Shown here: piece by piece, positions 12,663 to 37,744 of the stretch
Layout: each line of letters begins with the position of its first letter
Position numbering within the stretch: the first letter of the stretch is position 1
Notes under the pieces: generated by a model
Database searches by the model: none
What the model saw: only the letters and a program-made list of their open reading frames with translations
Told to the model about the DNA's origin: nothing
DNA from: a virus
Virus record (IMG/VR): IMGVR_UViG_3300010033_000003
Location: 1 to 37,744 of that record
Direction: 5' to 3' (one strand)
DNA: 37,744 bases
Program-made: the position numbers and the translations under genes

Positions 12663-14123
12663 ATGGAAAAAATAACTAAAAATGTTGTCTTCAAGCCTAA
12701 TAATAAAAAGCAGGTACAGTTTATAGATACTGTAATGAAGGCAGAACATACAGTTTTCTTATTTGGTGGTGCAATTCGTGGTGGCAAGACTTTCGTAGTC
12801 TTGTGCATCACGATTTTACTTTGTAAGATTTTTCCAGGGTCTAGATGGGTAATAGTGCGAAAAGATTTGAAAAGACTACGTGAAAATACAAGACCTTCAC
12901 TAAATAAGTTTATAACTGGTGTAGACGTAAAAATTAATGAACAACACCAAACTTTTATGTTTCCAAACGGTTCAATGATCATGTTTAAAGGTGAAAACTA
13001 TGATCGAGATAAAACGTTAGAATCATTTAAAGGACTAGAAACAAACGGTTTTATACTTGAAGAGGTTTCGGAAATTAGAGAGGTAACATATTACAAATGT
13101 ATCGAGCGTGCGGGCTCTTATATCATCCCAAACGTACCACTTGATAAGCAGCCGCCTCCATTGGTTTTAATGACTTGTAACCCTACGCAAACTTGGGTAA
13201 AACAATTGATTTATGATCCTTGGAAACTTGATCAAGAATTGATTCAGAAAAATGCAAAGCCGAAACATTTGCCGAAACACGTTTATTATTTGCCTTCATA
13301 TGTAACCGATAATGAAGCAAACTTAACAAAGTCATATTTAGAAAATATCAAGAATATGCCTCTTTATGAATACGAGGTGTTTGTTTTGGGGAACTGGGAC
13401 GTGGTTTTAAAGACCTCAAATGCTTTTTGGCATCAGTTTACTATGGATCAAGTAAAAGGTGTCTTCTATGATCCCGAAACGACTGTGCACGTTTCCATCG
13501 ATGCGAACAGTTTGCCTTATTGCTCAGCTTCATTCTGGCAGGTGTACCCAAAACAAAAGAAATTGGTACAGTTTCACGAAATTGCCGCTTCAGATCCAAA
13601 TAATCATGCTAGCGGTTTAGGTCGATTGGTTGCAGAATATTTGAATGAAGTTGAATACGCGGATGTTTTATACATTTACGGCGATGCTTCTACAAAGAAT
13701 CAAAACACAATTGATCCTGACAAAAAATCATTCTTTGATTTGTTTCTAGAACAATTAGCCTCAGAATTTAAAACAATCGATGAAATTGCACAATCAAATC
13801 CTAGAATTGCTAAAACAGGAGAATTTGTGAACGCACTTCACGCGGGTTATGATGGATGGAAATTAATAATCGGAGAAACATGCAAATACTCGATTTCAGA
13901 TTACATGAGTGTTAAAAAAGCGATGGACGGAACAATGGAGAAAAAGAGGGAAACCGATGATGAAGGTAGTAGTTACGAAAAACACGGTCACTTTTCAGAT
14001 TGTAAAAGATATCTATGCCACCGATTAATAAATGATGTGTTTCATAAATGGGATGGTCGTTTTTCTGAACCTTCTGAACCTTTGTCGGTCGATCCTTTTG
14101 AAGACTATGAAGAAAGTTATTGA
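12663..14123 (+). CDS. terL: Terminase large subunit
   Basis: Walker A FGGAIRGGKT, Walker B GFILEEVSE, coupling motif MTCNP, and a C-terminal nuclease-like VSIDANS...GDAS. Confidence 0.85.
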   Translation: MEKITKNVVFKPNNKKQVQFIDTVMKAEHTVFLFGGAIRGGKTFVVLCITILLCKIFPGSRWVIVRKDLKRLRENTRPSLNKFITGVDVKINEQHQTFMFPNGSMIMFKGENYDRDKTLESFKGLETNGFILEEVSEIREVTYYKCIERAGSYIIPNVPLDKQPPPLVLMTCNPTQTWVKQLIYDPWKLDQELIQKNAKPKHLPKHVYYLPSYVTDNEANLTKSYLENIKNMPLYEYEVFVLGNWDVVLKTSNAFWHQFTMDQVKGVFYDPETTVHVSIDANSLPYCSASFWQVYPKQKKLVQFHEIAASDPNNHASGLGRLVAEYLNEVEYADVLYIYGDASTKNQNTIDPDKKSFFDLFLEQLASEFKTIDEIAQSNPRIAKTGEFVNALHAGYDGWKLIIGETCKYSISDYMSVKKAMDGTMEKKRETDDEGSSYEKHGHFSDCKRYLCHRLINDVFHKWDGRFSEPSEPLSVDPFEDYEESY

Positions 14124-14127
14124 TTTT

Positions 14128-14158
14128 TTTGCATTTATAAGGATAATTTGTATATTTG
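14128..14158 (+). promoter_or_regulatory. Consensus Bacteroidota-type promoter, 5 nt after the terL stop
   Basis: TTTG (14128-14131), a 19-nt spacer, then TATATTTG (14151-14158). Confidence 0.65.
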
Positions 14159-14335: not shown

Positions 14336-14409
14336 AGTCCATTGGCTCAGTTGGTTAGAGTACTAGGTTGTCAGCCTAGGGATCACGGGTTCGAGTCCCG
14401 TATGGACTG
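14336..14409 (+). tRNA. tRNA-Asp (anticodon GTC)
   Basis: Folded by hand. Acceptor AGTCCAT/ATGGACT; D arm GCTC/GAGT; anticodon arm CTAGG-TTGTCAG-CCTAG with GTC at 14370-14372; 5-nt variable loop; T arm ACGGG-TTCGAGT-CCCGT; discriminator G. CCA is not encoded. Confidence 0.9.
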
Positions 14410-14411
14410 CT

Positions 14412-14502: not shown

Positions 14503-14781
14503 ATGTACAAAACATATAAAGAACAAGAGACTCACGGAAAACTAAATGGTAGAATAATAAGGTATCTATTAGATAGTTATTTGATTGGTGTTATAGAATT
14601 TAGAGCTCCACATAAGCAATACAAAGATGAATTTACAATAAAGACAATACATAAAAAAGCTTTTAGTAGAAGATTCTTAATTACAAAGCTCAGAATAGAA
14701 ACACCAAAAGAAGTGTACAAGAGAGCTGAGAAGTGGTTAGAAAAAAGAATGGTAAAAAACGAGTTTGATAAATATTTTTAA
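14503..14781 (+). CDS. Hypothetical basic protein (92 aa)
   Basis: Clean ORF in the island, K/R-rich, with no motif recognised. Confidence 0.6.
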   Translation: MYKTYKEQETHGKLNGRIIRYLLDSYLIGVIEFRAPHKQYKDEFTIKTIHKKAFSRRFLITKLRIETPKEVYKRAEKWLEKRMVKNEFDKYF

Positions 14782-14841: not shown

Positions 14842-15117
14842 ATGGAAAATGCAAAACAAATGAAAGAATTAAGCTTGAGAAGTGCAAGCGGTAGAGTAGA
14901 TGACATGATTCATGATTCTGCCAATAAAGGTTTTAATCATTGTGATATTAATTTCATATTATCTAAAGATAAAATAATTGAATTGGTTGATCTTGGTTAT
15001 ATAATTGACTGCAAAGATGAATCTTTTTATAAATCAAATGAATATTTTTACAAACCAGATGGATATAAATCTTATTTACCTTCAAGAGATAAAAAAGTTT
15101 TGAGAATTGAATGGTAG
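14842..15117 (+). CDS. Hypothetical protein (91 aa)
   Basis: Clean ORF with no motif recognised. Confidence 0.6.
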   Translation: MENAKQMKELSLRSASGRVDDMIHDSANKGFNHCDINFILSKDKIIELVDLGYIIDCKDESFYKSNEYFYKPDGYKSYLPSRDKKVLRIEW

Positions 15118-15123
15118 AAACAC

Positions 15124-15145
15124 AGCCCCTTAACGGGGGCTTATT
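15124..15145 (+). terminator. Rho-independent terminator (weak T tract)
   Basis: AGCCCC-TTAACG-GGGGCT followed by TATTT. Confidence 0.55.
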
Positions 15146-15355: not shown

Positions 15356-15709
15356 ATGAGAGATGTTATAAAGAATATAATAAAGAAAAAAATTTCTGAG
15401 CTAGAAGAAAAAGGTAGAAAATGCATTTTGCCGTTAGAGATGAAATTTCCTATAAAATTCAACAATAAAGAATATGAACTGACAATTCCTTTTAAGGGTA
15501 AGAATAACAAAAAACCAAAAATTTTGGAAATAATCAAATACAAAGGAATTAAAGGTTGTGTTATTTATTCAAAAGAAGATGAAATATTTCACGGTAAAAT
15601 ACTAGATACAAGACATCTTTTTTTATATGAAGGCAAAACCAGAGAAGAATTAAAAAAGAATTTTGAAGATATGGTCTTAATGTTCATTGAAGACAAAATA
15701 AAAGACTAA
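15356..15709 (+). CDS. HicB-family antitoxin-like protein, with an N-terminal extension and no DNA-binding tail
   Basis: YKGIKGCVIYSKEDEIFHGKILDTRHLFLYEGKTREELKKNFEDMVLMFIED matches the HicB-family signature YKGY.G.V....ED..FHG.I......I.FEG.T..EL...F...VD.YL. No HicA-like ORF is nearby. Confidence 0.65.
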   Translation: MRDVIKNIIKKKISELEEKGRKCILPLEMKFPIKFNNKEYELTIPFKGKNNKKPKILEIIKYKGIKGCVIYSKEDEIFHGKILDTRHLFLYEGKTREELKKNFEDMVLMFIEDKIKD

Positions 15710-15713
15710 TTTC

Positions 15714-15744
15714 TTTGCAGATTAAAAAATAATTACTATCATTG
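15714..15744 (+). promoter_or_regulatory. Near-consensus promoter
   Basis: TTTG-N19-TATCATTG, with one mismatch. Confidence 0.4.
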
Positions 15745-15784
15745 CATAGGACATATACATAGAGACTACGTTTTTGACATTCGA

Positions 15785-15822
15785 GAGCCAGATCCAAATT
15801 TTTGCGGTCTGGTTCTTTTTTT
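15785..15822 (+). terminator. Rho-independent terminator immediately upstream of terS
   Basis: GAGCCAGATC-N11-GGTCTGGTTC (with G-U pairs) followed by TTTTTTT. Confidence 0.65.
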
Positions 15823-15851
15823 GTATATTGATTAAAACAAACACAGCAAAC

Positions 15852-16448
15852 ATGGATAAGAATACAGAAAAGGAGTATGAAGACAGATTACAAATAGCGT
15901 TTTCACTCGTTGAAGATTTAAAAGATAAGGTAGAAGGTTTACAGACTCAAAAAGTAGCGCCGATTTGGGAGAATACGAAAATGGAGTTTGATAAAGACGG
16001 AAAAGTAAAGAAAAACCCAGGTGGAAGACCAAGAGCGTTTGAGAATCCAAAAGTACTTTGGGAAAAAGCAGTAGAGTATTTCCAGTGGTGTGATGAAAAC
16101 CCATACTTTAAAAATGAACTCGTTAAAGGTGGTAAGATGGCAGGAAAACTCATTTCTGTACCAACTGTAAGACCTTACACTTTAGGAGGGCTCTGCACCT
16201 TCATGAGTACTGGTACAAGCACTCTACACGACTACGAGAATAGAGAAGGCTTTGAAGAGTATTCGGAAATCATAAAGCGTATTAAGGAAATTATTAGGAC
16301 CCAAAAGTTTGAAGGTGCATCGATTGGCGCGTTTAATCCAAACATTATAGCTCAAGATTTAGGGCTTGCAAATAAGATCGAACACAAAGGTGAAGTAAAA
16401 ACAACTGAAAGTATAATTATCTACGCAGGTGAGGAAATAAAAATTTGA
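15852..16448 (+). CDS. terS: Terminase small subunit
   Basis: From MDKNTEK. GGRPRAFENPKVLWEKAVEYFQWC, then RPYTLGGLCTFMSTGTSTLHDYE...FEEYSEIIKRIK. This is the pattern of HTH-type small terminases. Confidence 0.65.
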   Translation: MDKNTEKEYEDRLQIAFSLVEDLKDKVEGLQTQKVAPIWENTKMEFDKDGKVKKNPGGRPRAFENPKVLWEKAVEYFQWCDENPYFKNELVKGGKMAGKLISVPTVRPYTLGGLCTFMSTGTSTLHDYENREGFEEYSEIIKRIKEIIRTQKFEGASIGAFNPNIIAQDLGLANKIEHKGEVKTTESIIIYAGEEIKI

Positions 16449-16603: not shown

Positions 16604-17329
16604 TTACTTGATCCATGCTTGTTTTGCTTGTACTAAAGCTTCTAAAGTACTAACATCTTTATATTCTTTAATTGTAAAGATAAGTTCCCTTATAATCTCA
16701 ACAGCTAGATCACTTTTTAAGATCTCTAATATAATCTTATTTTCCTCTTGGTTAACTATTTCTAGCTTTAATCTGTGAGCTTCTTCGGTTTTACCTTCTG
16801 CATAAAGTCTACCAAGTTTTTCATATTTTTCAGAATTAAGTCTAGAAAAAGTTTTTTTAACAACATCCTTATTAGACACTTCTTCATTAGATGTAAAATC
16901 AAGTACTTCTTTAATAGGATAATTCTTACAGATATAAGAGGCTAATCTTATTTGCCTCATTGTTGATATTTTTTTAAACATTTTATTAATAGTTCCATCA
17001 CTTAGATTATGAATTCTTTCAATAGATGCTGGGTTATGACCAAGAGGTGATAATACATATGAAAGATTAAATCTCATTTTTGATAACTGTTTTTCCGAAT
17101 AATCTTCTATAGTTCTGTTGTTAAATTCAGGATCAAGCTCGTCATTTATATACTGAACTATGACGAATCTACTTAAAGACCCAATTTCATAATCTTCATT
17201 AATGTATCTACTAACAAGAGTACTGCTTAAACCAATTTTTTTACTTACAGAAACTAAAGTTTCATTACCAATCTTTGCTCTTAATAGCTTTGAAATTTCG
17301 TCTTTCGACATTTTGTAGCTTGCTTTCAT
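16604..17329 (-). CDS. Putative transcriptional regulator with two HTH-like segments (241 aa)
   Basis: LVSVSKKIGLSSTLVSRYIN, and a second segment IERIHNLSDGTINKMFKK. Last gene of the leftward block. Confidence 0.5.
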   Translation of the reverse strand: MKASYKMSKDEISKLLRAKIGNETLVSVSKKIGLSSTLVSRYINEDYEIGSLSRFVIVQYINDELDPEFNNRTIEDYSEKQLSKMRFNLSYVLSPLGHNPASIERIHNLSDGTINKMFKKISTMRQIRLASYICKNYPIKEVLDFTSNEEVSNKDVVKKTFSRLNSEKYEKLGRLYAEGKTEEAHRLKLEIVNQEENKIILEILKSDLAVEIIRELIFTIKEYKDVSTLEALVQAKQAWIK

Positions 17330-17355
17330 GTTTTTATTTTTAAAATTATTAATAT

Positions 17356-17736
17356 TTATTTTTTACTTCTCTTAGGTTGAAATGCCATTTGTTCTTTCCA
17401 CCAGTCTTCTGTACTTTGTTCAGGTATTTCCTTTTTCTTACTCTTATTATACCCAATAAAGACTTGTTTCTCACACTTGACATACACTTTTGATTTTTCA
17501 CCTGCAATAATACAAGTAACAATAACATCAGGATTTTCAACTTCTTTCAATGTGGCTTCAATTTTTACTTTTTCTCCGTAAAATCTAGCCTCCCAAATAT
17601 GTTTTCTTTTACTCTCTTGTTCAACTGCAAGTAAATAGTTTGTTCTATCACTCAAAAAGAAATAAGCCGCTCTAATTGGTTCACTTTCGCAAACGTTCCA
17701 CTTGTCTATTGTTCTAAATCTTAATATTTTTTTCAT
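17356..17736 (-). CDS. Hypothetical early protein (126 aa)
   Basis: Clean ORF downstream of the promoter at 17760-17791. Confidence 0.6.
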   Translation of the reverse strand: MKKILRFRTIDKWNVCESEPIRAAYFFLSDRTNYLLAVEQESKRKHIWEARFYGEKVKIEATLKEVENPDVIVTCIIAGEKSKVYVKCEKQVFIGYNKSKKKEIPEQSTEDWWKEQMAFQPKRSKK

Positions 17737-17759
17737 GATGTATGAATTTGATTACACCA

Positions 17760-17791
17760 CTAATATAGAAACAATATTTAAAAAAATCAAA
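17760..17791 (-). promoter_or_regulatory. Early promoter (family member)
   Basis: Minus strand: TTTG-N20-TATATTAG, then the leader TGGTGTAATCAAATT. Confidence 0.5.
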
Positions 17792-17823
17792 CAAAAATGT
17801 TTATAAATATCGAGGAAAGTAAG

Positions 17824-17858
17824 CAAAAAATAATACCGTCATTATTAGTGACGGTATT
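17824..17858 (-). terminator. Rho-independent terminator (leftward)
   Basis: 10-bp stem AATACCGTCA/TGACGGTATT with a 7-nt loop, followed on the minus strand by TTTTTTG. Confidence 0.65.
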
Positions 17859-17879
17859 GGTTGTGTTTGGCGGTTAAAA

Positions 17880-18011
17880 TTAATCTTCTAAATATCTCAC
17901 TGAATGGTTTAAATTCTTACACATCTTCTTGTGATCATTAAAATTGTAAGGGAGTGGTATGTATCTTTTGCAATATGGACATACTCTGTAATTGTTTCTT
18001 TTTGGCTTCAT
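17880..18011 (-). CDS. Candidate 43-aa zinc-ribbon-like ORF
   Basis: MKPKRNNYRVCPYCKRYIPLPYNFNDHKKMCKNLNHSVRYLED (CxxC...HxxxC). Absent from the track. It fills the gap between YopX and the terminator. Confidence 0.4.
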   Translation of the reverse strand: MKPKRNNYRVCPYCKRYIPLPYNFNDHKKMCKNLNHSVRYLED

Positions 18012-18023
18012 ATGTTTTTTATG

Positions 18024-18431
18024 CTATGCCTTTCGGCGGTTGTTTATAAAATCGTAAATATCTCCAATTATTTTGTAATTAAATTTATGATATTCATGAA
18101 GCGAAATATATTTAGGAAGACGACCTCTACCTTTAATTCTTTTCAACACAATAGAACCTTCATGCCAACACACTACTCTAATTACTTCTTTGTCTGTTCC
18201 GTAATTGTTAGAACACACATCACCAATAAATACTTTTTCTCCAAACATTTCGTATCCTGTATATTGACAAACTGTATTCGGATCTACTTCTATTCCTGTG
18301 TAAAATCCAGTAGGGGTAATAATGTGTTTGCCTGTCTCAAAAATCCTACAATTAATTCCTGAATCAATAATAGATCCGTATAGCCATTCGTTATGACTAG
18401 CCCTTCGTGCTTTGAATAATATTTCTTTCAT
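18024..18431 (-). CDS. YopX-family protein
   Basis: Overall pattern MKEILFKARR...EWLYG...CQYTG...D..GKEIF.GD plus the C-terminal IIGDIYD, typical of YopX. Confidence 0.6.
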   Translation of the reverse strand: MKEILFKARRASHNEWLYGSIIDSGINCRIFETGKHIITPTGFYTGIEVDPNTVCQYTGYEMFGEKVFIGDVCSNNYGTDKEVIRVVCWHEGSIVLKRIKGRGRLPKYISLHEYHKFNYKIIGDIYDFINNRRKA

Positions 18432-18498
18432 TTTATTTGTTTTTAGTTAGACATGTTGTAAATATACAAAACTATTTATATATATCGAGGAAAATAAA

Positions 18499-18536
18499 CA
18501 AAAAAGCTGATATCGATTTAACGACATCAGCTTTTA
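18499..18536 (-). terminator. Rho-independent terminator (leftward)
   Basis: AGCTGAT.TCG-N6-CGA.ATCAGCT with one mismatch. There is a T tract on the minus strand. Confidence 0.6.
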
Positions 18537-18552
18537 AATAGGTTTTTAAGCT

Positions 18553-19005
18553 TTACGCTTTACACATCGGCTTTGATGGACGTATTTTTTTGCCTTCATG
18601 ATCAAGATTGAATAGTTTGTGATACCACTTTCTTGAACGTTCTTTATTCCAACTGTTACGCAAAGTACTACAATTGTCTACTAGACGCGAGTTTTGTTCC
18701 TCTAGCTTTGCTTTTTCATCTTGTAGATAATCGACAAGAGTTTTAGATTCCTTTTTGTGCTTGTCAAAAGCTTCCTTTATCTCTTGTACCTTTATAGAAT
18801 CTTTTTGAGTTTTCTCTATTAAAAACTTGTTGTCAACTTCTAGCTGAGTTTTTTTGTCCGATAGATCATTAAAGTTCTTTTGTAGTGACTTATGCCACGC
18901 TTCAAGATTGTTGTATTTTTCTTGAAGAATCTCGTTAGACTTTTCAATATTCTGAGCTACTTTAATAACGTGAGCTTTTGTTTTGCAATTTTCAAATTTT
19001 GACAT
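18553..19005 (-). CDS. Coiled-coil early protein (150 aa)
   Basis: Heptad-rich K/E/L/Q sequence with a basic C-terminus. Confidence 0.6.
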   Translation of the reverse strand: MSKFENCKTKAHVIKVAQNIEKSNEILQEKYNNLEAWHKSLQKNFNDLSDKKTQLEVDNKFLIEKTQKDSIKVQEIKEAFDKHKKESKTLVDYLQDEKAKLEEQNSRLVDNCSTLRNSWNKERSRKWYHKLFNLDHEGKKIRPSKPMCKA

Positions 19006-19049
19006 TGTAATTATTTATTTAATTAGACATTGGTGAAATGAATCACCGA

Positions 19050-19271
19050 TTAAGATAATTTTAAATGATTGAAGGTTTCGCAATGCTTTTTTGCATCCTC
19101 AAGATCATTGAAAAAAAGATTCTCTTCTCTTGAATCGAAACGCGTATAATCTTTAGCGTGATTAGCTGTAAGATAATACATATCTTTTCTAGCGCTGTAA
19201 AATATACGGAATAAAACGTTTTTACTTTTACCTTCGAAATGGGATAACCCAATAGATTTAAATCTGATCAT
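19050..19271 (-). CDS. Hypothetical early protein (73 aa)
   Basis: The start MIRFK at 19271 overlaps the upstream stop (ATGA). Confidence 0.55.
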   Translation of the reverse strand: MIRFKSIGLSHFEGKSKNVLFRIFYSARKDMYYLTANHAKDYTRFDSREENLFFNDLEDAKKHCETFNHLKLS

Positions 19272-19447
19272 AGTTTTACATTGTTTTTGTACCAATCTTC
19301 AAATTGGTCCATATTTGATTCATAAAAAAGGCATTTTGAACACGGGATATCAAAACAATTATCGTTATTGGCTAAACAATACGCTCTTTGTATCATATCT
19401 ATTTCGTGCTTTTTGCCTGGATATTTCAAACTTTTATACTTATGCAT
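19268..19447 (-). CDS. Candidate 59-aa Cys-rich ORF
   Basis: MHKYKSLKYPGKKHEIDMIQRAYCLANNDNCFDIPCSKCLFYESNMDQFEDWYKNNVKL. Directly downstream of promoter 19471-19502. Absent from the track. Confidence 0.45.
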   Translation of the reverse strand: MHKYKSLKYPGKKHEIDMIQRAYCLANNDNCFDIPCSKCLFYESNMDQFEDWYKNNVKL

Positions 19448-19470
19448 ATCAAACGTTTTTGATTACACTG

Positions 19471-19502
19471 CTAATGTATACACAATATATGTAAAAAGCA
19501 AA
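19471..19502 (-). promoter_or_regulatory. Early promoter (family member)
   Basis: Minus strand: TTTG-N20-TACATTAG, then the leader CAGTGTAATCAAAAA. Confidence 0.5.
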
Positions 19503-19511
19503 TAAAATTAT

Positions 19512-19541
19512 AAAAAAAACACCCCTATCGAAATAGAGGTG
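19512..19541 (-). terminator. Rho-independent terminator (leftward)
   Basis: Minus strand: CACCTCTAT-TTCG-ATAGGGGTG followed by T8. Confidence 0.65.
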
Positions 19542-19548
19542 ATTTAAT

Positions 19549-19863
19549 TTAAACTTTCCAGTCTTCAAAGACTTCTTCTTTTTGTGGTGTTTCGTCGAAA
19601 GGTCTTAATACTTCAACATAGATTTCCCGCATTTTAAGCGGCTTATTTTTATAACTATGTTTAAACTGAACCATATCGATAACACCAGTGAAGGGGCAAA
19701 GTAAAACGTTATTGTATGAATGTTTTCCGTTAACAATTACATTGCATCGGTAAATAGTTTTTTCACCGTTGTATTTGTAATTTGGGCTAAATGATACTAC
19801 CAAGCCCGTTTGATCTGTTCTTTCGTCTTCTGGTAGTTGAAAACGGTCGTTATCGCTACTCAT
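19549..19863 (-). CDS. Hypothetical early protein (104 aa)
   Basis: The start MSSDNDR at 19863 overlaps the upstream stop by 1 nt. Confidence 0.55.
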   Translation of the reverse strand: MSSDNDRFQLPEDERTDQTGLVVSFSPNYKYNGEKTIYRCNVIVNGKHSYNNVLLCPFTGVIDMVQFKHSYKNKPLKMREIYVEVLRPFDETPQKEEVFEDWKV

Positions 19864-20084
19864 TAGAATAAGTGAATTATAAGACAACCTATTGCGGCAC
19901 AACCTCCAATTATTATAGCTGCAAGGGCTATAGGATCCATTTTTTTCGCACTAACTCTACACATTCTTATAATTGAATTGTGAGCTTTCACGGTGTCCTT
20001 GATTAATTTCTTATCGTAGCGGTTTAGCTTGTAGTTTTCCTTCTCTTGAAGGATGCTTTCTACTTGTTGTATTGTCTTGTTCAT
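19863..20084 (-). CDS. Small tail-anchored membrane protein (73 aa)
   Basis: C-terminal hydrophobic segment IALAAIIIGGCAAIGCLIIHLF. Confidence 0.55.
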   Translation of the reverse strand: MNKTIQQVESILQEKENYKLNRYDKKLIKDTVKAHNSIIRMCRVSAKKMDPIALAAIIIGGCAAIGCLIIHLF

Positions 20085-20632
20085 TACACTAGGTCTTTAA
20101 GAATTGAATTTGGTTTATTAATTGGTGCAAATGCAAAATCGATTGTGAAGCCGTTTTCATCTGCTACTTGACGACCGAAAATATTTCCAATATGCTCAGC
20201 GCAAAAGAAAACTTCATAGGTTAAAAAGGCTGCTGAGCCTTTTGGGTTTGACACCTTACAAACTGCAAACTTTCTCAAGTAGTCTTTGTTTGGAGAATGT
20301 ACACCTTGTTGTTTGCATATTTCAACAATAATTTTTTGCAAACTCATTAAGATTTTTTCGTCCAAATCTTCAATTGTGTTTTTAATACTAGGTAATTGAC
20401 CTTTTGACAGATGATAATTGTAAACTTTTTCAATTTCTTTTCTCACTGCTGAAGGTCGGTTTGATTTTCTATTCAAAACAAGATTCATTTCTTCCTCTAA
20501 TTTTTCAAGTGACCAATCATGTACTTCATCTGTGTTACTGTGTTTTGGTCTTTTAGTTGGAAAATTTTGAAATTCAAGATCTTTAAGCTTTTTAAATTCA
20601 AAATTAATTTCGTTGTTTTCATTTACTACCAT
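20084..20632 (-). CDS. Hypothetical early protein (182 aa)
   Basis: Clean ORF with overlapping start and stop junctions on both sides. Confidence 0.6.
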   Translation of the reverse strand: MVVNENNEINFEFKKLKDLEFQNFPTKRPKHSNTDEVHDWSLEKLEEEMNLVLNRKSNRPSAVRKEIEKVYNYHLSKGQLPSIKNTIEDLDEKILMSLQKIIVEICKQQGVHSPNKDYLRKFAVCKVSNPKGSAAFLTYEVFFCAEHIGNIFGRQVADENGFTIDFAFAPINKPNSILKDLV

Positions 20633-21099
20633 ACTTTAATCCTCCTTTTAGCTAATCGGTTAAAAAATTCATAGTTGTATCCTGCATCCTTTACCCATGC
20701 TTTTAGGCGGTGCATGAATGCAGTTTTGTTAAGCTTTGGAAATAGATTGCAATACTCTTCGTAAACGTCTTTAACCAAAACTTTAACGTTTTTAACGTTT
20801 TCGAATACATTTTCAAAGAAAATCATTTCTTTATTTACTAGCAACAATTGTTCGTATTGCTCTTTAGTAATTGGATCAATTGAATGTATTCCTTCGGTAA
20901 CTTCGTTGATATCCACTAAAGGACGTACACCTTTTTGATCAGACATAGCCTTTTGACAGGTGTTTTTAATACTCCACTTGATAGTTTCAATATCATAGTA
21001 TTTTCCTGTATCAAGGGAAATGATTCTACTTTTAAAATAGTTAGAACCTGCATACTGCTTTGACGCAATATCTTTTACTTTGTCTACAATCGTAATCAT
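20626..21099 (-). CDS. Hypothetical early protein (157 aa), first gene of the leftward block
   Basis: Clean ORF downstream of promoter 21129-21159. Confidence 0.6.
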   Translation of the reverse strand: MITIVDKVKDIASKQYAGSNYFKSRIISLDTGKYYDIETIKWSIKNTCQKAMSDQKGVRPLVDINEVTEGIHSIDPITKEQYEQLLLVNKEMIFFENVFENVKNVKVLVKDVYEEYCNLFPKLNKTAFMHRLKAWVKDAGYNYEFFNRLAKRRIKVW

Positions 21100-23253: not shown

Positions 23254-23959
23254 TATTTTAACTGGTGTTACGGTAAGAAATGCTGAGAGCGGTTTTTACT
23301 TAAACGGTATATTTGACGGAATGACTTACTTTGTTTCTCCTTTTGGAAGTGGAGTAGTTCGGCTTTATCCTGCGAACGTCTCAGATGAAGTGAACGAGAT
23401 GCAAATTGATTTAGCTAGCTTAATACTACAAGATACAGGAGGCAGTCCAGTCACGCCCGCAAATTTACAAGAAAGATCGGCAATGTTAAACACATTTGTC
23501 TCAAAAAAAAAATTAGCTAGTGGAGGCAGCGGTGGCAGACAAGTATTTTTACCTACTCAGTCACCGTTTGCCAATGTTGCAGCTCGAAACACTTGGGCTA
23601 CTGCTAATCTAAGCGATTTGCATAATGATGCTACAGAGGTGACGCGTGCGGTTGTGGGAGGAACTACATACGAGTGGAATGGTGAAGATACTCCTTCAAG
23701 TTACGACGCAAATGGGTGGGCAGCTATTTCACAAATGGCAGATTTATCGCTAGTAGTGAAATGTTCGGGACCTCACACATTGACAGCGGATCAAGTTGCA
23801 AACGGTGTGACTTTACCTGCGGGAGCAGGAGCGGGAGTTATTCAAGTTTTCCGTGAAGGTGTAGTGATTTATAATTACACAGTTACAGGAAATGTTTTAT
23901 CGGGTCCAACTCCTACGGATTGGGCTGTGGGTCAAGAATTACTTATTTATTATAAATAA
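23246..23959 (+). CDS. Hypothetical structural protein (237 aa)
   Basis: ATG at 23246; the track start at 23240 is TTG. It has a G/S-rich linker. Confidence 0.55.
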   Translation: MSNILTGVTVRNAESGFYLNGIFDGMTYFVSPFGSGVVRLYPANVSDEVNEMQIDLASLILQDTGGSPVTPANLQERSAMLNTFVSKKKLASGGSGGRQVFLPTQSPFANVAARNTWATANLSDLHNDATEVTRAVVGGTTYEWNGEDTPSSYDANGWAAISQMADLSLVVKCSGPHTLTADQVANGVTLPAGAGAGVIQVFREGVVIYNYTVTGNVLSGPTPTDWAVGQELLIYYK

Positions 23960-23972
23960 AACTAGGGGAAAA

Positions 23973-26900
23973 ATGAAAAAATTATTATTATTTATTTCGT
24001 TGTTGTTTATTTCTGTTTTAGCAGAAGCGCAAAGTTCGGTGGTATTTAGAAGGGTAGCAAATGCAACCGTTACGGCTAGTAGAAACAACTACGCAAATAC
24101 ATACGTAATGAATGAAGCTACGGGAGAGTGGTTTCGTTTAACTGGTACATGGACAAGCGGAACAGCTTTTTCAGCAGCTCCAAAATCTATGATATCTCGC
24201 TTACCTGCATTGACTCAAAGCGGTGCAATGTTAACTTCATCATTGGATTTTACAGTACCAACAAGCGCGATATTCTTTGATAATTCAGTACACTTAAGAT
24301 CTAATTCTAGGGTCGGTGAATTTGTAGATTTGTCAAGAAATCATAATCATGAAGTTATAACAACGTCTTATGACAATACTGGTAGTAATGTTCCTGTTTA
24401 CTATGAAAAATCGGCAATAGCTTCATTTTTAGTTCAAACACAAGAGGACGCGACTAGCTCAAGTTTTTCGTTTATAGCTCCTGTATTGGAAGTAGCAAAC
24501 AGAGATGGTGTAAAGTTCTTGCAGGTGGTTATTGAAGCATCTACGGCGGGAAATGGTGCTTTTACAATGCGTTATATGAATTCAACAGGTAGAATTTTAG
24601 TAACGGAAACCGATTTTACTATTTTATCCAGTGATGTAAACAACGATAAAACGATTACTCTTGAAAATCCAGTTGATTTATTCGATACAGAAATAGTTCA
24701 TATAACATATAGCGGTACAGCTACAATAAAAGGGCATATTTTTACAAATGATCCAAATTTCGGGAGTGGTTTTGTACCTAAAATCACGACTATGTCTTTG
24801 CCTTTTGTTGCTAAAAATATGGCTTTGGATGAAGATGTACCAGATAACGCGAGTCAATTACCGTTTGTGAAAGAAGGTGAACCAAATACGAATGTACGCA
24901 CTGAATTACTAGCGCGTGAAAGTAGCCTTGGTAATCCTAGTTCAAACGGTCAAGTTTTAAGCTCTACAACTGCGGGGGCTCGTTCATGGATAAGTTTACC
25001 CGATGCCACTGGAAGCTTTAGAAGTGTTTTCAATGTAAGAAATGTTAATGCTTCTACATTAAACATTGGCGATTTAGTTACTTATGATGATTTTAGCGCT
25101 GTATCTAATCATGTTGACGCGGCAAGTGCAAGCGGACAGCTAGCAGGAGATAGAATTTTAGCGGGAATCATGATTAAACAGGTAAATAGTTTCACCGATT
25201 CAGACGATGCACTATTAACCCGTGGATATGGTACATTTACTTTATCTAGCTTAACTGGTTTAAGTTTACATTCTAAATTATATGCAGCTCGTTCAGGTTC
25301 GGGATCTTCATTTGCTTGGAATCTTTCTACAACTAAAACGGCTAATTCTTTTGAAGTTGGAATCATAACCGAAGCGACAAACCCAACAATCGGACTATAT
25401 AACATCTATTTTAATTTCGAAGATGTCACAGCTCAGATTTTAGCGGAAACAAAAGAGCCTCGTTTAGGAAATCCAACAGCGACACAAAGATTTCTTACTT
25501 CTACAACTACAGGAACAAGAAGTTGGCAAGAAATAGTAAGTAAATTGTTTTTGAGAGAGCCAACAACATATTCAGGACAAATCAATTTAAGTACCGATAT
25601 TAATTCTGTAACTGGATTTGATAGATTTTATGTATTTAATGGAACAAGCTCGACAATTGGAGCGCGAGAAATTAATTTACCAACATCGGGAAAAGCTCAG
25701 GAACAAGTTGGACGATTTTATTTGATGTCAAATAGAGGAAGTGTAACGCAGGTAATCACCGCGGGAACTGGTAACACTATTAGAGGAGGTTTATCGACTG
25801 TGAATGTACCAAGTATGACAAATGTCATTATAACGCTTTCGGATTATAACGCAACAGGTGATGAAACTTGGGATGTAATTAGTTTGGGAAATGTTGCTAG
25901 CGGTTCAGGTGGTGCAGGTGGTGCAAGTGGAGCGAGTTCGATGGATCAACACATAGATTTACAATTAGTAAATAAAACAGGTTCAGCAATAAACGCAGGT
26001 GATGCAGCAGAATTAAAAGCACTAAATGGATCATATGCGGGTATAAAAGCAAATACAGGTCAACAATTAGGCGGTTTTTTTACTGAAGATGCTGAAAACA
26101 ATACAAATGTAAATGTTAGAATTATTGGTCCTGTTTCAAATGTTAGAATTTGGGGTAAAAACAATGATGATTCTCAAGAACATTATGAAACTATATCGCA
26201 AAATACGCTAGTTTATTATGATGATGATAATGATAGGCTTACAACAAAATCAAGCTATATTGTAGGGTCTACAACTATTCAAAGACATTCATTAGGCGGC
26301 ATTTTAACAAGTACACAAACTTTAAGCTCTACAGTAGCGAGAACTTTAGGAACTAATTACCAAAATTCATCAGGAGCAGAAGCGGGAATTTCAATTAATA
26401 AAGTGAATGCTTTTACTGGTCAAGGTACTTCTACGTATACTATGCCTACAAATGTATTTTCTCAAGTAAGTATTGGCGACGAAATTATAATTGAAATTAC
26501 TCCTAATTCTGGACAAACGGGAATTGTTAACGTTATTCCTGCATCTGGCGTTTATTTAAGGGATAAATCAGATAATTCTTATACTTCTGGATCTCCTTTG
26601 GCTATGAGTTCAGCAAACGGAAAACAAGTAAGAAAATTCAAACTTGAGGCGGCTGCTGAGGGTGAAAGTTATCCTACTTGGAGAGCAATGGACAACGCTG
26701 AGAATATAACAAATCATTCTTTTGCATTTAATGTAATAGAATACAATAAAACAATGTTAGCAGCTCAAGTCACAAATAATTCAGCGGGAATATCGCAAAA
26801 TAAAAGCGCTTTGGCAGGTGTTCAAAATTCTAATGTAATTCCAAACGTTGTAGATGCTACGCAGTCAGGAAATGAAAACGGCTACACTATAACTCAATCA

Positions 26901-27191
26901 GTAGTTCAGAATAACGAAACCGTGTTTTTTGCTGCAAATAGTCCTTCAGCTAACAACCAAAGAGTTTGGACTGTTAATATGGATCATACACAATGGAGTA
27001 ATTTAGGAGTTAACAAAGGCTATATTTTTAGGGTTTGGAATCCAAGCTCATTTACTGTTCAGGTTAAGCCTAGTACTGGAACTTTTGAAGGATCAGGTTT
27101 GAATGTAATTACAATTAGTGGCTCAAATAGTGCCGTATTTCTTATCAGAAGAACAAGTACGACAAACGTTGAGATCGCACATATAGGATAA
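23973..27191 (+). CDS. Large (1072 aa) fibre/receptor-binding-like protein with an N-terminal signal peptide
   Basis: MKKLLLFISLLFISVLAEA|Q. The fibre-type motif LGNP...L(S/T)STT.G.RSW occurs twice. GSGGAGGASGASS linker. Confidence 0.6.
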   Translation: MKKLLLFISLLFISVLAEAQSSVVFRRVANATVTASRNNYANTYVMNEATGEWFRLTGTWTSGTAFSAAPKSMISRLPALTQSGAMLTSSLDFTVPTSAIFFDNSVHLRSNSRVGEFVDLSRNHNHEVITTSYDNTGSNVPVYYEKSAIASFLVQTQEDATSSSFSFIAPVLEVANRDGVKFLQVVIEASTAGNGAFTMRYMNSTGRILVTETDFTILSSDVNNDKTITLENPVDLFDTEIVHITYSGTATIKGHIFTNDPNFGSGFVPKITTMSLPFVAKNMALDEDVPDNASQLPFVKEGEPNTNVRTELLARESSLGNPSSNGQVLSSTTAGARSWISLPDATGSFRSVFNVRNVNASTLNIGDLVTYDDFSAVSNHVDAASASGQLAGDRILAGIMIKQVNSFTDSDDALLTRGYGTFTLSSLTGLSLHSKLYAARSGSGSSFAWNLSTTKTANSFEVGIITEATNPTIGLYNIYFNFEDVTAQILAETKEPRLGNPTATQRFLTSTTTGTRSWQEIVSKLFLREPTTYSGQINLSTDINSVTGFDRFYVFNGTSSTIGAREINLPTSGKAQEQVGRFYLMSNRGSVTQVITAGTGNTIRGGLSTVNVPSMTNVIITLSDYNATGDETWDVISLGNVASGSGGAGGASGASSMDQHIDLQLVNKTGSAINAGDAAELKALNGSYAGIKANTGQQLGGFFTEDAENNTNVNVRIIGPVSNVRIWGKNNDDSQEHYETISQNTLVYYDDDNDRLTTKSSYIVGSTTIQRHSLGGILTSTQTLSSTVARTLGTNYQNSSGAEAGISINKVNAFTGQGTSTYTMPTNVFSQVSIGDEIIIEITPNSGQTGIVNVIPASGVYLRDKSDNSYTSGSPLAMSSANGKQVRKFKLEAAAEGESYPTWRAMDNAENITNHSFAFNVIEYNKTMLAAQVTNNSAGISQNKSALAGVQNSNVIPNVVDATQSGNENGYTITQSVVQNNETVFFAANSPSANNQRVWTVNMDHTQWSNLGVNKGYIFRVWNPSSFTVQVKPSTGTFEGSGLNVITISGSNSAVFLIRRTSTTNVEIAHIG

Positions 27192-28052: not shown

Positions 28053-28564
28053 TGTCAAATAAATATAACATACCAAAGCTTTCAAGGTCGTTTACACCTC
28101 ATTTCTGGCAGAATGATGTAAATAATCGATTCATTGATATTTTGATGGCTTCTTTAGCTGTAGTAAATGAAAACACTCAAAGTTTAGAAGAAGAAATTTT
28201 GGAGCGTGTTGGATACTCAGTACAAAGATTATCATTAGAAAGATCATTGAATAATAGATTTGATCGTGAAAGACAAAGGATAATTATCGAAAACGGTGCG
28301 GTCGGAACTTCAGGTTTTGTTTTTAATGAAAACGAAAGTCCATCGGCAAATAAAATTATCTACGTTTTTAACGAGGCTGAAACAACACCGTCGGGTAGTG
28401 ATACTCCTTACTTTTTTAACGAGGACGAAAGTGGAACAACATCGATTACAGAATTTACCGTAACTTTGCCGATGACGCTTTCAAGTCGTGAAAACGAAAT
28501 TCGTTCATGGATCGATTTCGTGAGAATTTTTGGAACAAGATACACATTAAGATTTGTACTATGA
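28052..28564 (+). CDS. Baseplate/tail protein I-like
   Basis: 170 aa versus 176 aa for P2 gpI. Overlapping junctions with the J-like and fibre-like genes. Confidence 0.4.
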   Translation: MSNKYNIPKLSRSFTPHFWQNDVNNRFIDILMASLAVVNENTQSLEEEILERVGYSVQRLSLERSLNNRFDRERQRIIIENGAVGTSGFVFNENESPSANKIIYVFNEAETTPSGSDTPYFFNEDESGTTSITEFTVTLPMTLSSRENEIRSWIDFVRIFGTRYTLRFVL

Positions 28565-29841
28565 TTAGAAATACAGCATTACCAGGAGGGCGACAAGCCA
28601 AAAACGAAGACTTTCAACAATATGTTCAAGCTTTCGGAGTTTTTGAACAAATGTTTTTAGCCTTAGGACACGACGATTTTATTGTAAGTGGTTGTACAAT
28701 TACAGGAAATAACGTTTCAAGCGGGATAATCATGTTTGGCGGTGAATTAACGCTTTTTGATGGTGCAAACGGTGTCACTTTTCCGCTTAGATTATCGAAG
28801 CGTACAAGAGCTATAAACCCAAGGGCGTTTGATGATGGATCTACAAAAACAACGGCTGAACGTGTTGAAGCAATTCAGGATCCAGTTGGCACATTCATGT
28901 TAAGCGCTACGACTCCACGAGCAAACAATAAATTTTTAAGAACTGTAGGTGATGCACTGAGAGGAAATATAGACGGAAACAATAGAGGCAGAAATAATAT
29001 TTATAAAACTTTACTTTCAGATAGATTCGAAAGTGTTAGAATTATAACGAAAGCACCTGCAGCAAATCGCTATTTGAAAATTGGTACATTTCCAATTACT
29101 CCAAATAGTCAAGCTTATCAATTGATTTTTTCTGGTGGTGGAGTGAATAGAGGTAATTTGGCATCGATAACAATAAATCGCGTCAATATAAGTGGAACAA
29201 ACAACGCTACAGGTGAAGTATTTTTCAGTACTTCTGAACCAATAGCAAATTTACCTCAATTCTACATTAGAAGAAACGACGGTGAAAGTGTGTTTGAAGT
29301 GTGGACAAGATCCCCAAATCCATCGGGCGGGATTACAGGCGATATTTTAAGCTCGATTGTTGAATTAATTGGTGAAGCTTTTTCGGTTGCTACAACAAGC
29401 GATTTCGTATTTGAAGAAACGTTTACTTGGCAATCCTCTACACCTAGTAATCTAGTAACTTTAACAGCTAGTGTAATTGCTACAAGTAATCAGTTAAATA
29501 CTATTAATACAAGATTGGGAACTGATGCTTCACAAAATATTTCGCCTCAGTCACCTTATTCAGGTTTAATAAATGCAGAGGTTAAAAACGGAATTGCTTT
29601 TTTGAATGGTACTTTTGTTATACCTGACGGTGAAGACGTAGATCCAAACGATTTACTTTATAATATACCCGCAGCATATAGACCAAAAACGATAATTCAT
29701 ATAAACGGATACGATCATGAAGTATCTGTTGATCCTCTTTTCGGGATGACATTGGGAACTGACGGAAGATTAATTTCAAAAGAAACTGATAACCCAGTGA
29801 ATAGAGTGACTTATTATTTTTCAGTATCTTATCCAGTATAA
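28561..29841 (+). CDS. Tail fibre-like protein (426 aa)
   Basis: The start MIRNTALPGG overlaps the upstream stop (ATGA). It occupies the position equivalent to P2 gpH, after J and I. Confidence 0.45.
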   Translation: MIRNTALPGGRQAKNEDFQQYVQAFGVFEQMFLALGHDDFIVSGCTITGNNVSSGIIMFGGELTLFDGANGVTFPLRLSKRTRAINPRAFDDGSTKTTAERVEAIQDPVGTFMLSATTPRANNKFLRTVGDALRGNIDGNNRGRNNIYKTLLSDRFESVRIITKAPAANRYLKIGTFPITPNSQAYQLIFSGGGVNRGNLASITINRVNISGTNNATGEVFFSTSEPIANLPQFYIRRNDGESVFEVWTRSPNPSGGITGDILSSIVELIGEAFSVATTSDFVFEETFTWQSSTPSNLVTLTASVIATSNQLNTINTRLGTDASQNISPQSPYSGLINAEVKNGIAFLNGTFVIPDGEDVDPNDLLYNIPAAYRPKTIIHINGYDHEVSVDPLFGMTLGTDGRLISKETDNPVNRVTYYFSVSYPV

Positions 29842-37312: not shown

Positions 37313-37744
37313 TTAGGCTTAGGGATCGAGTAACGAAACAAGCCCAAAGAATGCAAAAGTCAATTAATAGAACTGAAAGAAGCGCTAAAAGGTTGGGCAA
37401 TACTTTGGATTTTGTTGGGAGAATTTCCGCGGCTGTTGCTGTTGGAGGAATTTTTAAATTTGGTGCTGAACTAGAGCAAGCAAAATTAAAATTTAATACT
37501 TTGACTGGATCTGTTGAAAAAGGTACAAAATTATTTAATGATCTACGAGACTTTGCAAACACTACACCTTTTCAAGATAATAGATTACAGAAAAATGCAT
37601 CTACTCTACTAGCTTTCGGAAATAATTCTAAAACTGTTATTAAAACTCTACGTATGTTAGGTGATGTTGCCGCAGGTGATCAACACAGATTGGATGCTTT
37701 AACTTTAGCTTTTGCACAATCACAAGCTGCGGGAAGATTATTAG
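37291..37744 (+). CDS. Tail tape measure protein, N-terminal part. The full ORF is 37291..37621 joined to 1..1163, 497 aa.
   Basis: ATG at 37291 with GGAGGA 8 nt upstream, open to the window end. It carries the ...LRMLGDVAAGDQHRLDALTLAFAQSQAAGRL tape-measure core motif and follows the sheath, tube and chaperone genes. Confidence 0.8.
   Translation, partial: MAQTTYIIRLRDRVTKQAQRMQKSINRTERSAKRLGNTLDFVGRISAAVAVGGIFKFGAELEQAKLKFNTLTGSVEKGTKLFNDLRDFANTTPFQDNRLQKNASTLLAFGNNSKTVIKTLRMLGDVAAGDQHRLDALTLAFAQSQAAGRLL
37622..37744. repeat. Second copy of the terminal direct repeat (equals 1-123)
   Basis: Exact 123-nt identity with the window start. Confidence 0.9.

Follow-up and report, generated by a model that had tools for sequence, protein, structure and literature searches.

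The window analysed here, the whole stretch of viral DNA of 37,744 nucleotides, contains at 15356–15709 a real open reading frame (ORF), and residues 58–113 of its 117-residue product are very probably homologous to the N-terminal, HicA-neutralising domain of the "YKGY-type" HicB antitoxins. In the ENA record of the source contig (37,762 bp), the gene was called independently with the same boundaries. The phage appears to carry an antitoxin homologue without a detectable HicA toxin. Of several explanations for this arrangement, we tentatively favour one in which the gene is a stand-alone HicB accessory gene that acts against a HicA toxin of the host.

The HicB-like domain and its N-terminal extension

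The gene and the two parts of its product are located as follows.

15356–15709, plus strand: solo HicB-like gene with an ATG start, encoding 117 aa (the span takes in the stop codon)
15356–15526, plus strand: residues 1–57, lysine-rich orphan N-terminal extension with a predicted helix (2–18) and beta-hairpin (28–45)
15527–15694, plus strand: residues 58–113, HicB-family (UPF0150-like) domain of the toxin-binding type, four beta strands followed by a helix

An initial annotation of the window had reported a HicB-family signature at about residues 62–117, and such a signature is indeed present, at residues 58–113. This part of the protein matches PHROG 9151 'HicB-like antitoxin' with E=1.2e-9 (residues 58–112 against profile positions 3–57 of 119), and phmmer, run exhaustively against 1.84 billion cluster representatives, returned 312 relatives at E<=1e-3, essentially all of them aligned over residues ~58–113. 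In a word-indexed search of 5.8 billion proteins, the sole match was the protein itself. The family consensus reads xLxYKGYxGSVEYSxEDxxFxGKVLxxxxLxxYEGxTxxELxxDFxxxVDxY, and the protein retains each of the eight positions that are invariant or nearly so in the family (Y62, G67, S72, D75, G80, Y91, G93 and F103), so that the motif is real and far beyond what chance would produce. The protein ends only four residues past the domain and has no C-terminal tail; the DNA-binding tail that the initial annotation had described as missing is therefore absent.

The proteins to which the domain is most readily compared are encoded next to HicA. By BLASTP, residues 58–113 align without gaps to residues 3–57 of a HicB from Pontibacter silvestris (52% identity, E=3e-17) and of a HicB from a Helicobacter pametensis prophage (44% identity, E=5e-14), and both of these are encoded directly downstream of PF07927 HicA genes. 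Three tailed relatives were examined more closely, on the Helicobacter pametensis prophage, a Haematospirillum phage-plasmid and the Pontibacter silvestris chromosome. In all three, a PF07927 HicA (E about 1e-11) lies immediately upstream and the tail of the HicB corresponds to PF05534 'HicB'. As far as these three examples go, the relatives with a C-terminal tail are true HicB antitoxins.

A lack of any significant hit to the Pfam HicB families had been named as a result that would speak against the assignment, and no such hit was obtained. The 117-aa protein has no match in Pfam, NCBIfam or PADLOC, even at E<=10, and matches none of the curated models of the HicB clan (PF15919, PF21748, PF05534 and NCBIfam HicB). 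In part, this is because PF05534 models the linker and tail and not the N-terminal domain: in the HicBs of L013, L014 and L021, this 51-position model matches residues 55–105, comprising the linker and an RHH-like tail, and the N-terminal toxin-binding domain lies outside the match. Tail-less members of this HicB subfamily thus escape Pfam annotation. PF21748 (UPF0150-like), which is reached by 14 of 73 relatives with a best E=1.8e-9, covers the N-terminal domain of the subfamily only loosely.

The AlphaFold2 model of the full-length protein (73 relatives in the alignment) has a mean pLDDT of 82.9 and consists of a helix (2–18), a beta-hairpin (28–45), four strands and a helix (96–116), the secondary structure of the N-terminal extension being of moderate confidence. 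Modelled alone, the domain reaches a pLDDT of 94 with the order beta-beta-beta-beta-alpha. Foldseek comparison with the PDB gave nothing significant for either the full model or the domain alone, and the first 50 matches contain no HicB and are led by dsRNA-binding domains at a non-significant E~0.14. The best fold matches in BFVD, at E~1e-3 and a probability of 1.0, were small proteins of phages, among them one annotated as "nuclease of the RNAse H fold, HicB family". At the sequence level, the 117-aa protein had no match in the PDB, and the profile of 73 relatives retrieved only designed proteins and noise from PDB sequences. When the family profile was aligned by hhalign with two HicB sequences, the match to E. 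coli HicB (E=0.16) and that to B. pseudomallei HicB, in the expected register (only E=0.026), were both too weak to be of use. The fold comparison is not decisive; the HicB assignment is based on homology, at the sequence level, to proteins that have a HicA partner.

The domain is preceded by 57 residues that, as had been claimed earlier, are rich in lysine (14 by direct count) and unrelated to anything known. Homologues of residues 1–57 were found neither by the word search of 5.8 billion proteins nor by phmmer among 1.84 billion representatives, and no likeness to the N-terminal extensions of other relatives was found; there is a match with E=0.002 to PHROG 28437, a family without annotated function. 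In codon usage, the extension scores +0.18 per codon in the ORF frame, where the two alternative frames give −0.74 and −0.46; the mean for real genes is +0.34, and the spacer upstream has −0.54. The extension looks coding, translated in the frame of the ORF. Both of its halves score as coding-like, and translation may start at M1 or, instead, at M29. A BLAST alignment to a three-domain relative (P0002) ran into the extension. An origin as a decayed tandem copy of the HicB-like domain was considered and rejected: hhalign finds nothing, and the domain HMM gives −1.4 bits on the extension, a score equalled or exceeded by 475 of 854 shuffles. Nothing points to the new partner-binding or RNA-binding module that the initial annotation had suggested, and we regard the extension as unique, with no function attributable to it.

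The phage genome and the setting of the gene

The window contains genes of a tailed phage (sheath, baseplate, portal, protease, major capsid protein, TerL and TerS), and the phage is a Bacteroidota-type myovirus. Its GC content is 34% and its nearest TerL sequences are those of Flavobacterium, Polaribacter and Bacteroides phages; the host phylum is likely to be Bacteroidota. About 30 of 80 cellular loci with relatives of the domain belong to this phylum (as counted from record titles), including the best match, Pontibacter, so that the likely hosts would commonly own a hicAB locus with this subtype of HicB.

Positions 1–123 of the window are identical to positions 37622–37744, an exact terminal overlap of 123 bp, and a tape-measure ORF runs across the junction, from which we conclude that the window represents a complete genome of ~37.6 kb, circular or circularly permuted. 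The initial annotation had noted the absence of a HicA near the gene and had allowed for a cognate hicA elsewhere in the phage; because the genome is complete, the absence extends to the whole phage, and none was found in any of the six frames. Pfam recognised no family at all among the 66 small ORFs for which a long open frame does not cover most of the length, and a HicA HMM, which was built and then iterated on fetched loci up to 71 sequences, detected no HicA in the six-frame translation of the window (best E=2.3). In its starting form, this HMM recovered HicAs outside its training set (those of L017 and L018).

The surroundings of the gene comprise the following features.

12663–14123, plus strand: TerL, large terminase, 5' of TerS
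14336–14410: tRNA-Asp, found by Rfam
14503–14781, plus strand: orphan ORF without family match
14842–15117, plus strand: orphan ORF without family match
15124–15141: GC-rich hairpin with T-run, flagged on both strands by a terminator scan and seen in the intergenic RNA fold
15783–15825, plus strand: stem-loop with U-run, a candidate terminator (RNA fold of 15705–15850, z=−2.97)
15849–16448, plus strand: TerS (GP3_package), small terminase, downstream of the HicB-like gene

The gene thus shares with the tRNA-Asp and the two orphan ORFs an insert of 1.7 kb that separates TerL from TerS. In a distant relative, Flavobacterium phage lotta8-1, TerS stands directly before TerL and the insert is absent, and neither a HicB-like domain nor a HicA is present within 5 kb in any of 80 phage loci with a related TerS. 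Transcription from upstream probably stops at the hairpin at 15124–15141, in which case the HicB-like gene would need a promoter of its own; no Bacteroidota-type promoter motif was found directly upstream of it, and the RNA fold of the intergenic region upstream of the gene is unremarkable (z=−1.6). The stem-loop at 15783–15825 was not called by the simple terminator scan, whose limit its loop seems to exceed. With hairpins on both sides, the gene looks like a self-contained accessory cassette.

Some further features of the genome may be recorded. The tRNA-Asp was the sole match of the Rfam search. A Bacteroidota-type promoter motif (TTTG, spacer, TAnnTTTG) occurs at 14128–14158, just behind TerL and ahead of the tRNA-Asp cassette; with 6 matches versus 3.7 expected, the window shows no enrichment of this motif. 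Nine minus-strand ORFs (16604–21099) interrupt the plus-strand packaging and morphogenesis genes, and this block has one family match only, YopX at 18024–18431, with no integrase or toxin domain among its scanned ORFs. In the structural module, the ORFs at 23892–27191 (1099 aa) and 28507–29841 (444 aa) have no PHROG or Pfam match.

Relatives of the protein and possible explanations

The initial annotation described the gene as an orphan, rearranged HicB. It is an orphan, but to call it rearranged overstates the case, since tail-less and N-extended forms are common among its relatives. Among the best 150 relatives, 65 consist of the domain only, 51 of the N-terminal domain and a tail, and 24 (this protein included) of the domain behind an N-terminal extension without a tail, with a further 6 extended on both sides and 4 being tandem arrays of two or three domains. 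The architecture would accordingly be described as one of several common variants and not as a singular rearrangement. The N-terminal extensions of the relatives are mutually unrelated, several being Zn-ribbon-like and one membrane-like. Tandem arrays with two or three HicB-like domains are found in P0002 (182 aa, three domains), P0003 (160 aa), P0064 and P0099, and of all relatives P0002 scores best against the window protein. The relatives P0005 and P0009 come from contigs whose shortness makes them uninformative about context.

Loss of the tail is linked to the solitary state. An adjacent HicA is found for 67 of 77 tailed relatives versus 2 of 15 tail-less ones (Fisher's exact test, p=4e-8), in a de-duplicated set of phage records, metagenome contigs and 80 loci with one genome per species, and both of the tail-less relatives that do adjoin a HicA look like decayed or fused loci. 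A search of viral contigs for related loci with the 117-aa protein as single query found none, and one viral locus was obtained with a narrow alignment as query. Among phages, solo copies without a tail are found in unrelated settings, namely in Vibrio phages, on contigs of the rumen or gut type and in a faecal phage, and these other phage copies are likewise without HicA.

Several individual loci deserve mention. Joostella sp. CR20 has a 60-aa solo tail-less HicB-like gene (L029, 2989–3171) flanked by a tyrosine integrase and the R subunit of a type I restriction system, and in Tenacibaculum sp. a 66-aa solo tail-less gene (L096, 2995–3195) adjoins McrBC; both settings are defence or mobile islands. 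In a Saprospiraceae MAG (L087, 2692–3219), a single frame encodes a HicA domain followed by a HicB-like domain with a truncated tail, which represents a fused hicAB gene or else an artefact of assembly or of a frameshift. The faecal phage MT835571 (L016, 1967–2695) has a 242-aa ORF with a long, CxxC-bearing N-terminal region and a C-terminal HicB-like domain; no HicA is nearby, and the next ORF has a motif, read by eye, that resembles uracil-DNA-glycosylase.

The process that we favour is one of counter-defence, in which an accessory gene of a Bacteroidota-type myovirus encodes a lone antitoxin domain of the HicB family. At an early stage of infection, this protein would bind a HicA-type mRNA interferase of the host through its domain at residues 58–113, in the way that the N-domain of HicB masks the catalytic His of HicA, and the sequestration of HicA would block an abortive-infection or growth-arrest response, to the benefit of the phage. 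As it has no DNA-binding domain, the protein would act as a toxin sponge only and not as the repressor of an operon. The idea fits the observation that tail-less relatives are almost never, and tailed ones almost always, adjacent to HicA, the presence of HicA-partnered Bacteroidota HicBs among the closest cellular relatives, and the location of the gene in a non-conserved insert between TerL and TerS. Solo phage antitoxins are established as counter-defence for other toxin-antitoxin families (PMC11825919, PMC10760071). Our literature search found no published report of a solo phage HicB that neutralises HicA. As a rule, a type II antitoxin recognises its own toxin specifically, and an identity of 40–52% to cellular HicBs would be no guarantee of cross-neutralisation. 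We put forward the anti-HicA function itself with reserve, as a plausible proposal in which our confidence is limited.

A more general binding role is conceivable, because the N-terminal modules to which the domain is joined are many and unrelated, and because it is also found in tandem arrays. The HicB/UPF0150-like domain might be a general binding module whose target is not HicA but a different toxin or defence effector, a protein of phage or host, or RNA, with the N-terminal module providing specificity or activity. The variety of extensions among the relatives, Zn-ribbon-like and membrane-like ones included, and the arrays of two to three domains would agree with this, as would the dsRNA-binding domains among the top PDB fold matches, though these are not significant, and the bacterial solo copies that adjoin type I R-M and McrBC and not HicA. 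We nevertheless consider it rather unlikely, given that HicA is the partner of every relative with an identifiable partner (67 of the 77 tailed ones), that the residues conserved here are the ones found in proteins paired with HicA, and that there is no positive sign of nucleic-acid binding. A further idea, in which tail-less HicB domains with variable N-terminal modules form an unrecognised modular family of anti-toxin-antitoxin counter-defence proteins, the domain capturing HicA-type RNases and the N-terminal module adding a second activity (RNA binding, targeting or broadened specificity), is a speculation to which we attach little probability.

The gene might also be a drifting remnant of a former phage hicAB module (a superinfection exclusion or addiction cassette) that has lost its toxin and its tail. 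Complete hicAB pairs do occur in phages and prophages (L013, L014, L017 and L018), and the bacterial tail-less copies L062, L072 and L078 look like truncated canonical HicBs. A decaying gene would, however, hardly be expected to keep eight out of eight conserved positions and a domain modelled at pLDDT 94, to end cleanly after a helix without the linker sequence found in the truncated copies, or to have gained a coding-like N-terminal extension, and the recurrence of tail-less solo copies across unrelated phages also argues against decay, which we judge to be improbable. More improbable still, by a clear step, is that the protein is the antitoxin of a non-canonical pair whose toxin is a neighbouring orphan ORF (14503–14781 or 14842–15117). 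These two ORFs of 91–92 aa lie upstream on the same strand and match no family, but they are separated from the gene by a terminator-like hairpin and a gap of 238 bp, they resemble neither HicA nor any Pfam toxin family, and the downstream gene is the small terminase.

If the anti-HicA explanation is true, the gene represents another phage escape from toxin-antitoxin immunity, in this case in Bacteroidota, the phage-defence biology of which has to our knowledge been little studied. The absence of a tail in copies of this HicB subtype offers a simple rule for picking candidate solo antitoxins, and the analysis accounts for the escape of such genes from Pfam annotation. By itself, the gene is a routine accessory gene from an already catalogued family.

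Comparison with known systems

Phage proteins that act as lone antitoxins are known from other systems, as when T4 Dmd counters RnlA/LsoA. The counter-defences of the Dmd and anti-DarTG type belong to other protein families, with other chemistry, and have been demonstrated experimentally, unlike the window protein, which is known from sequence. What is shared is the concept of the solo antitoxin, both with the orphan antitoxin-like enzymes of T4-like phages directed against DarTG1 (PMC11825919) and with the antitoxin mimic of ICP1 directed against DarTG (PMC10760071), and the use of phage solo antitoxins as counter-defence has been stated generally (PMC10367356). For the HicAB system, HicB N-domains have been reported to neutralise HicA and to bind it without the C-terminal domain, and the Y. 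pestis complex still forms when the C-terminal domain of HicB is lacking (PMC11594946).

With the YKGY-type HicBs of Pontibacter silvestris (NZ_JAJJWI010000043.1) and the Helicobacter pametensis prophage (BK070131), the window protein shares a domain of 44–52% identity and its conserved positions; it differs from them in having neither the linker nor the RHH-type tail, in lacking an upstream hicA, and in carrying 57 unrelated residues before the domain. A parallel in setting is a 73-aa protein of Vibrio phage 166E36-1, also from PHROG 9151 (a family in the category moron, auxiliary metabolic gene and host takeover), which is likewise phage-borne and tail-less with no adjoining HicA; it consists of the domain only, and the window protein adds the N-terminal extension.

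In the classification of Gerdes 2024, small HicBs that lack a DNA-binding domain form classes 1 and 2, HicBs with a C-terminal HicB fold form classes 7 and 8, and solitary hicB genes are reported from defence islands (PMC10865869). Most HicB classes have a C-terminal RHH or HTH domain for autoregulation, which these four classes lack. The window protein resembles all four in the missing DNA-binding domain and classes 7 and 8 in having its HicB-like domain placed C-terminally behind other sequence, but these classes are defined by an adjacent hicA, which the window protein does not have, and the N-terminal regions are unrelated. The gene belongs to an already catalogued kind, that of PHROG 9151 and of HicBs which are solitary or devoid of a DNA-binding domain.
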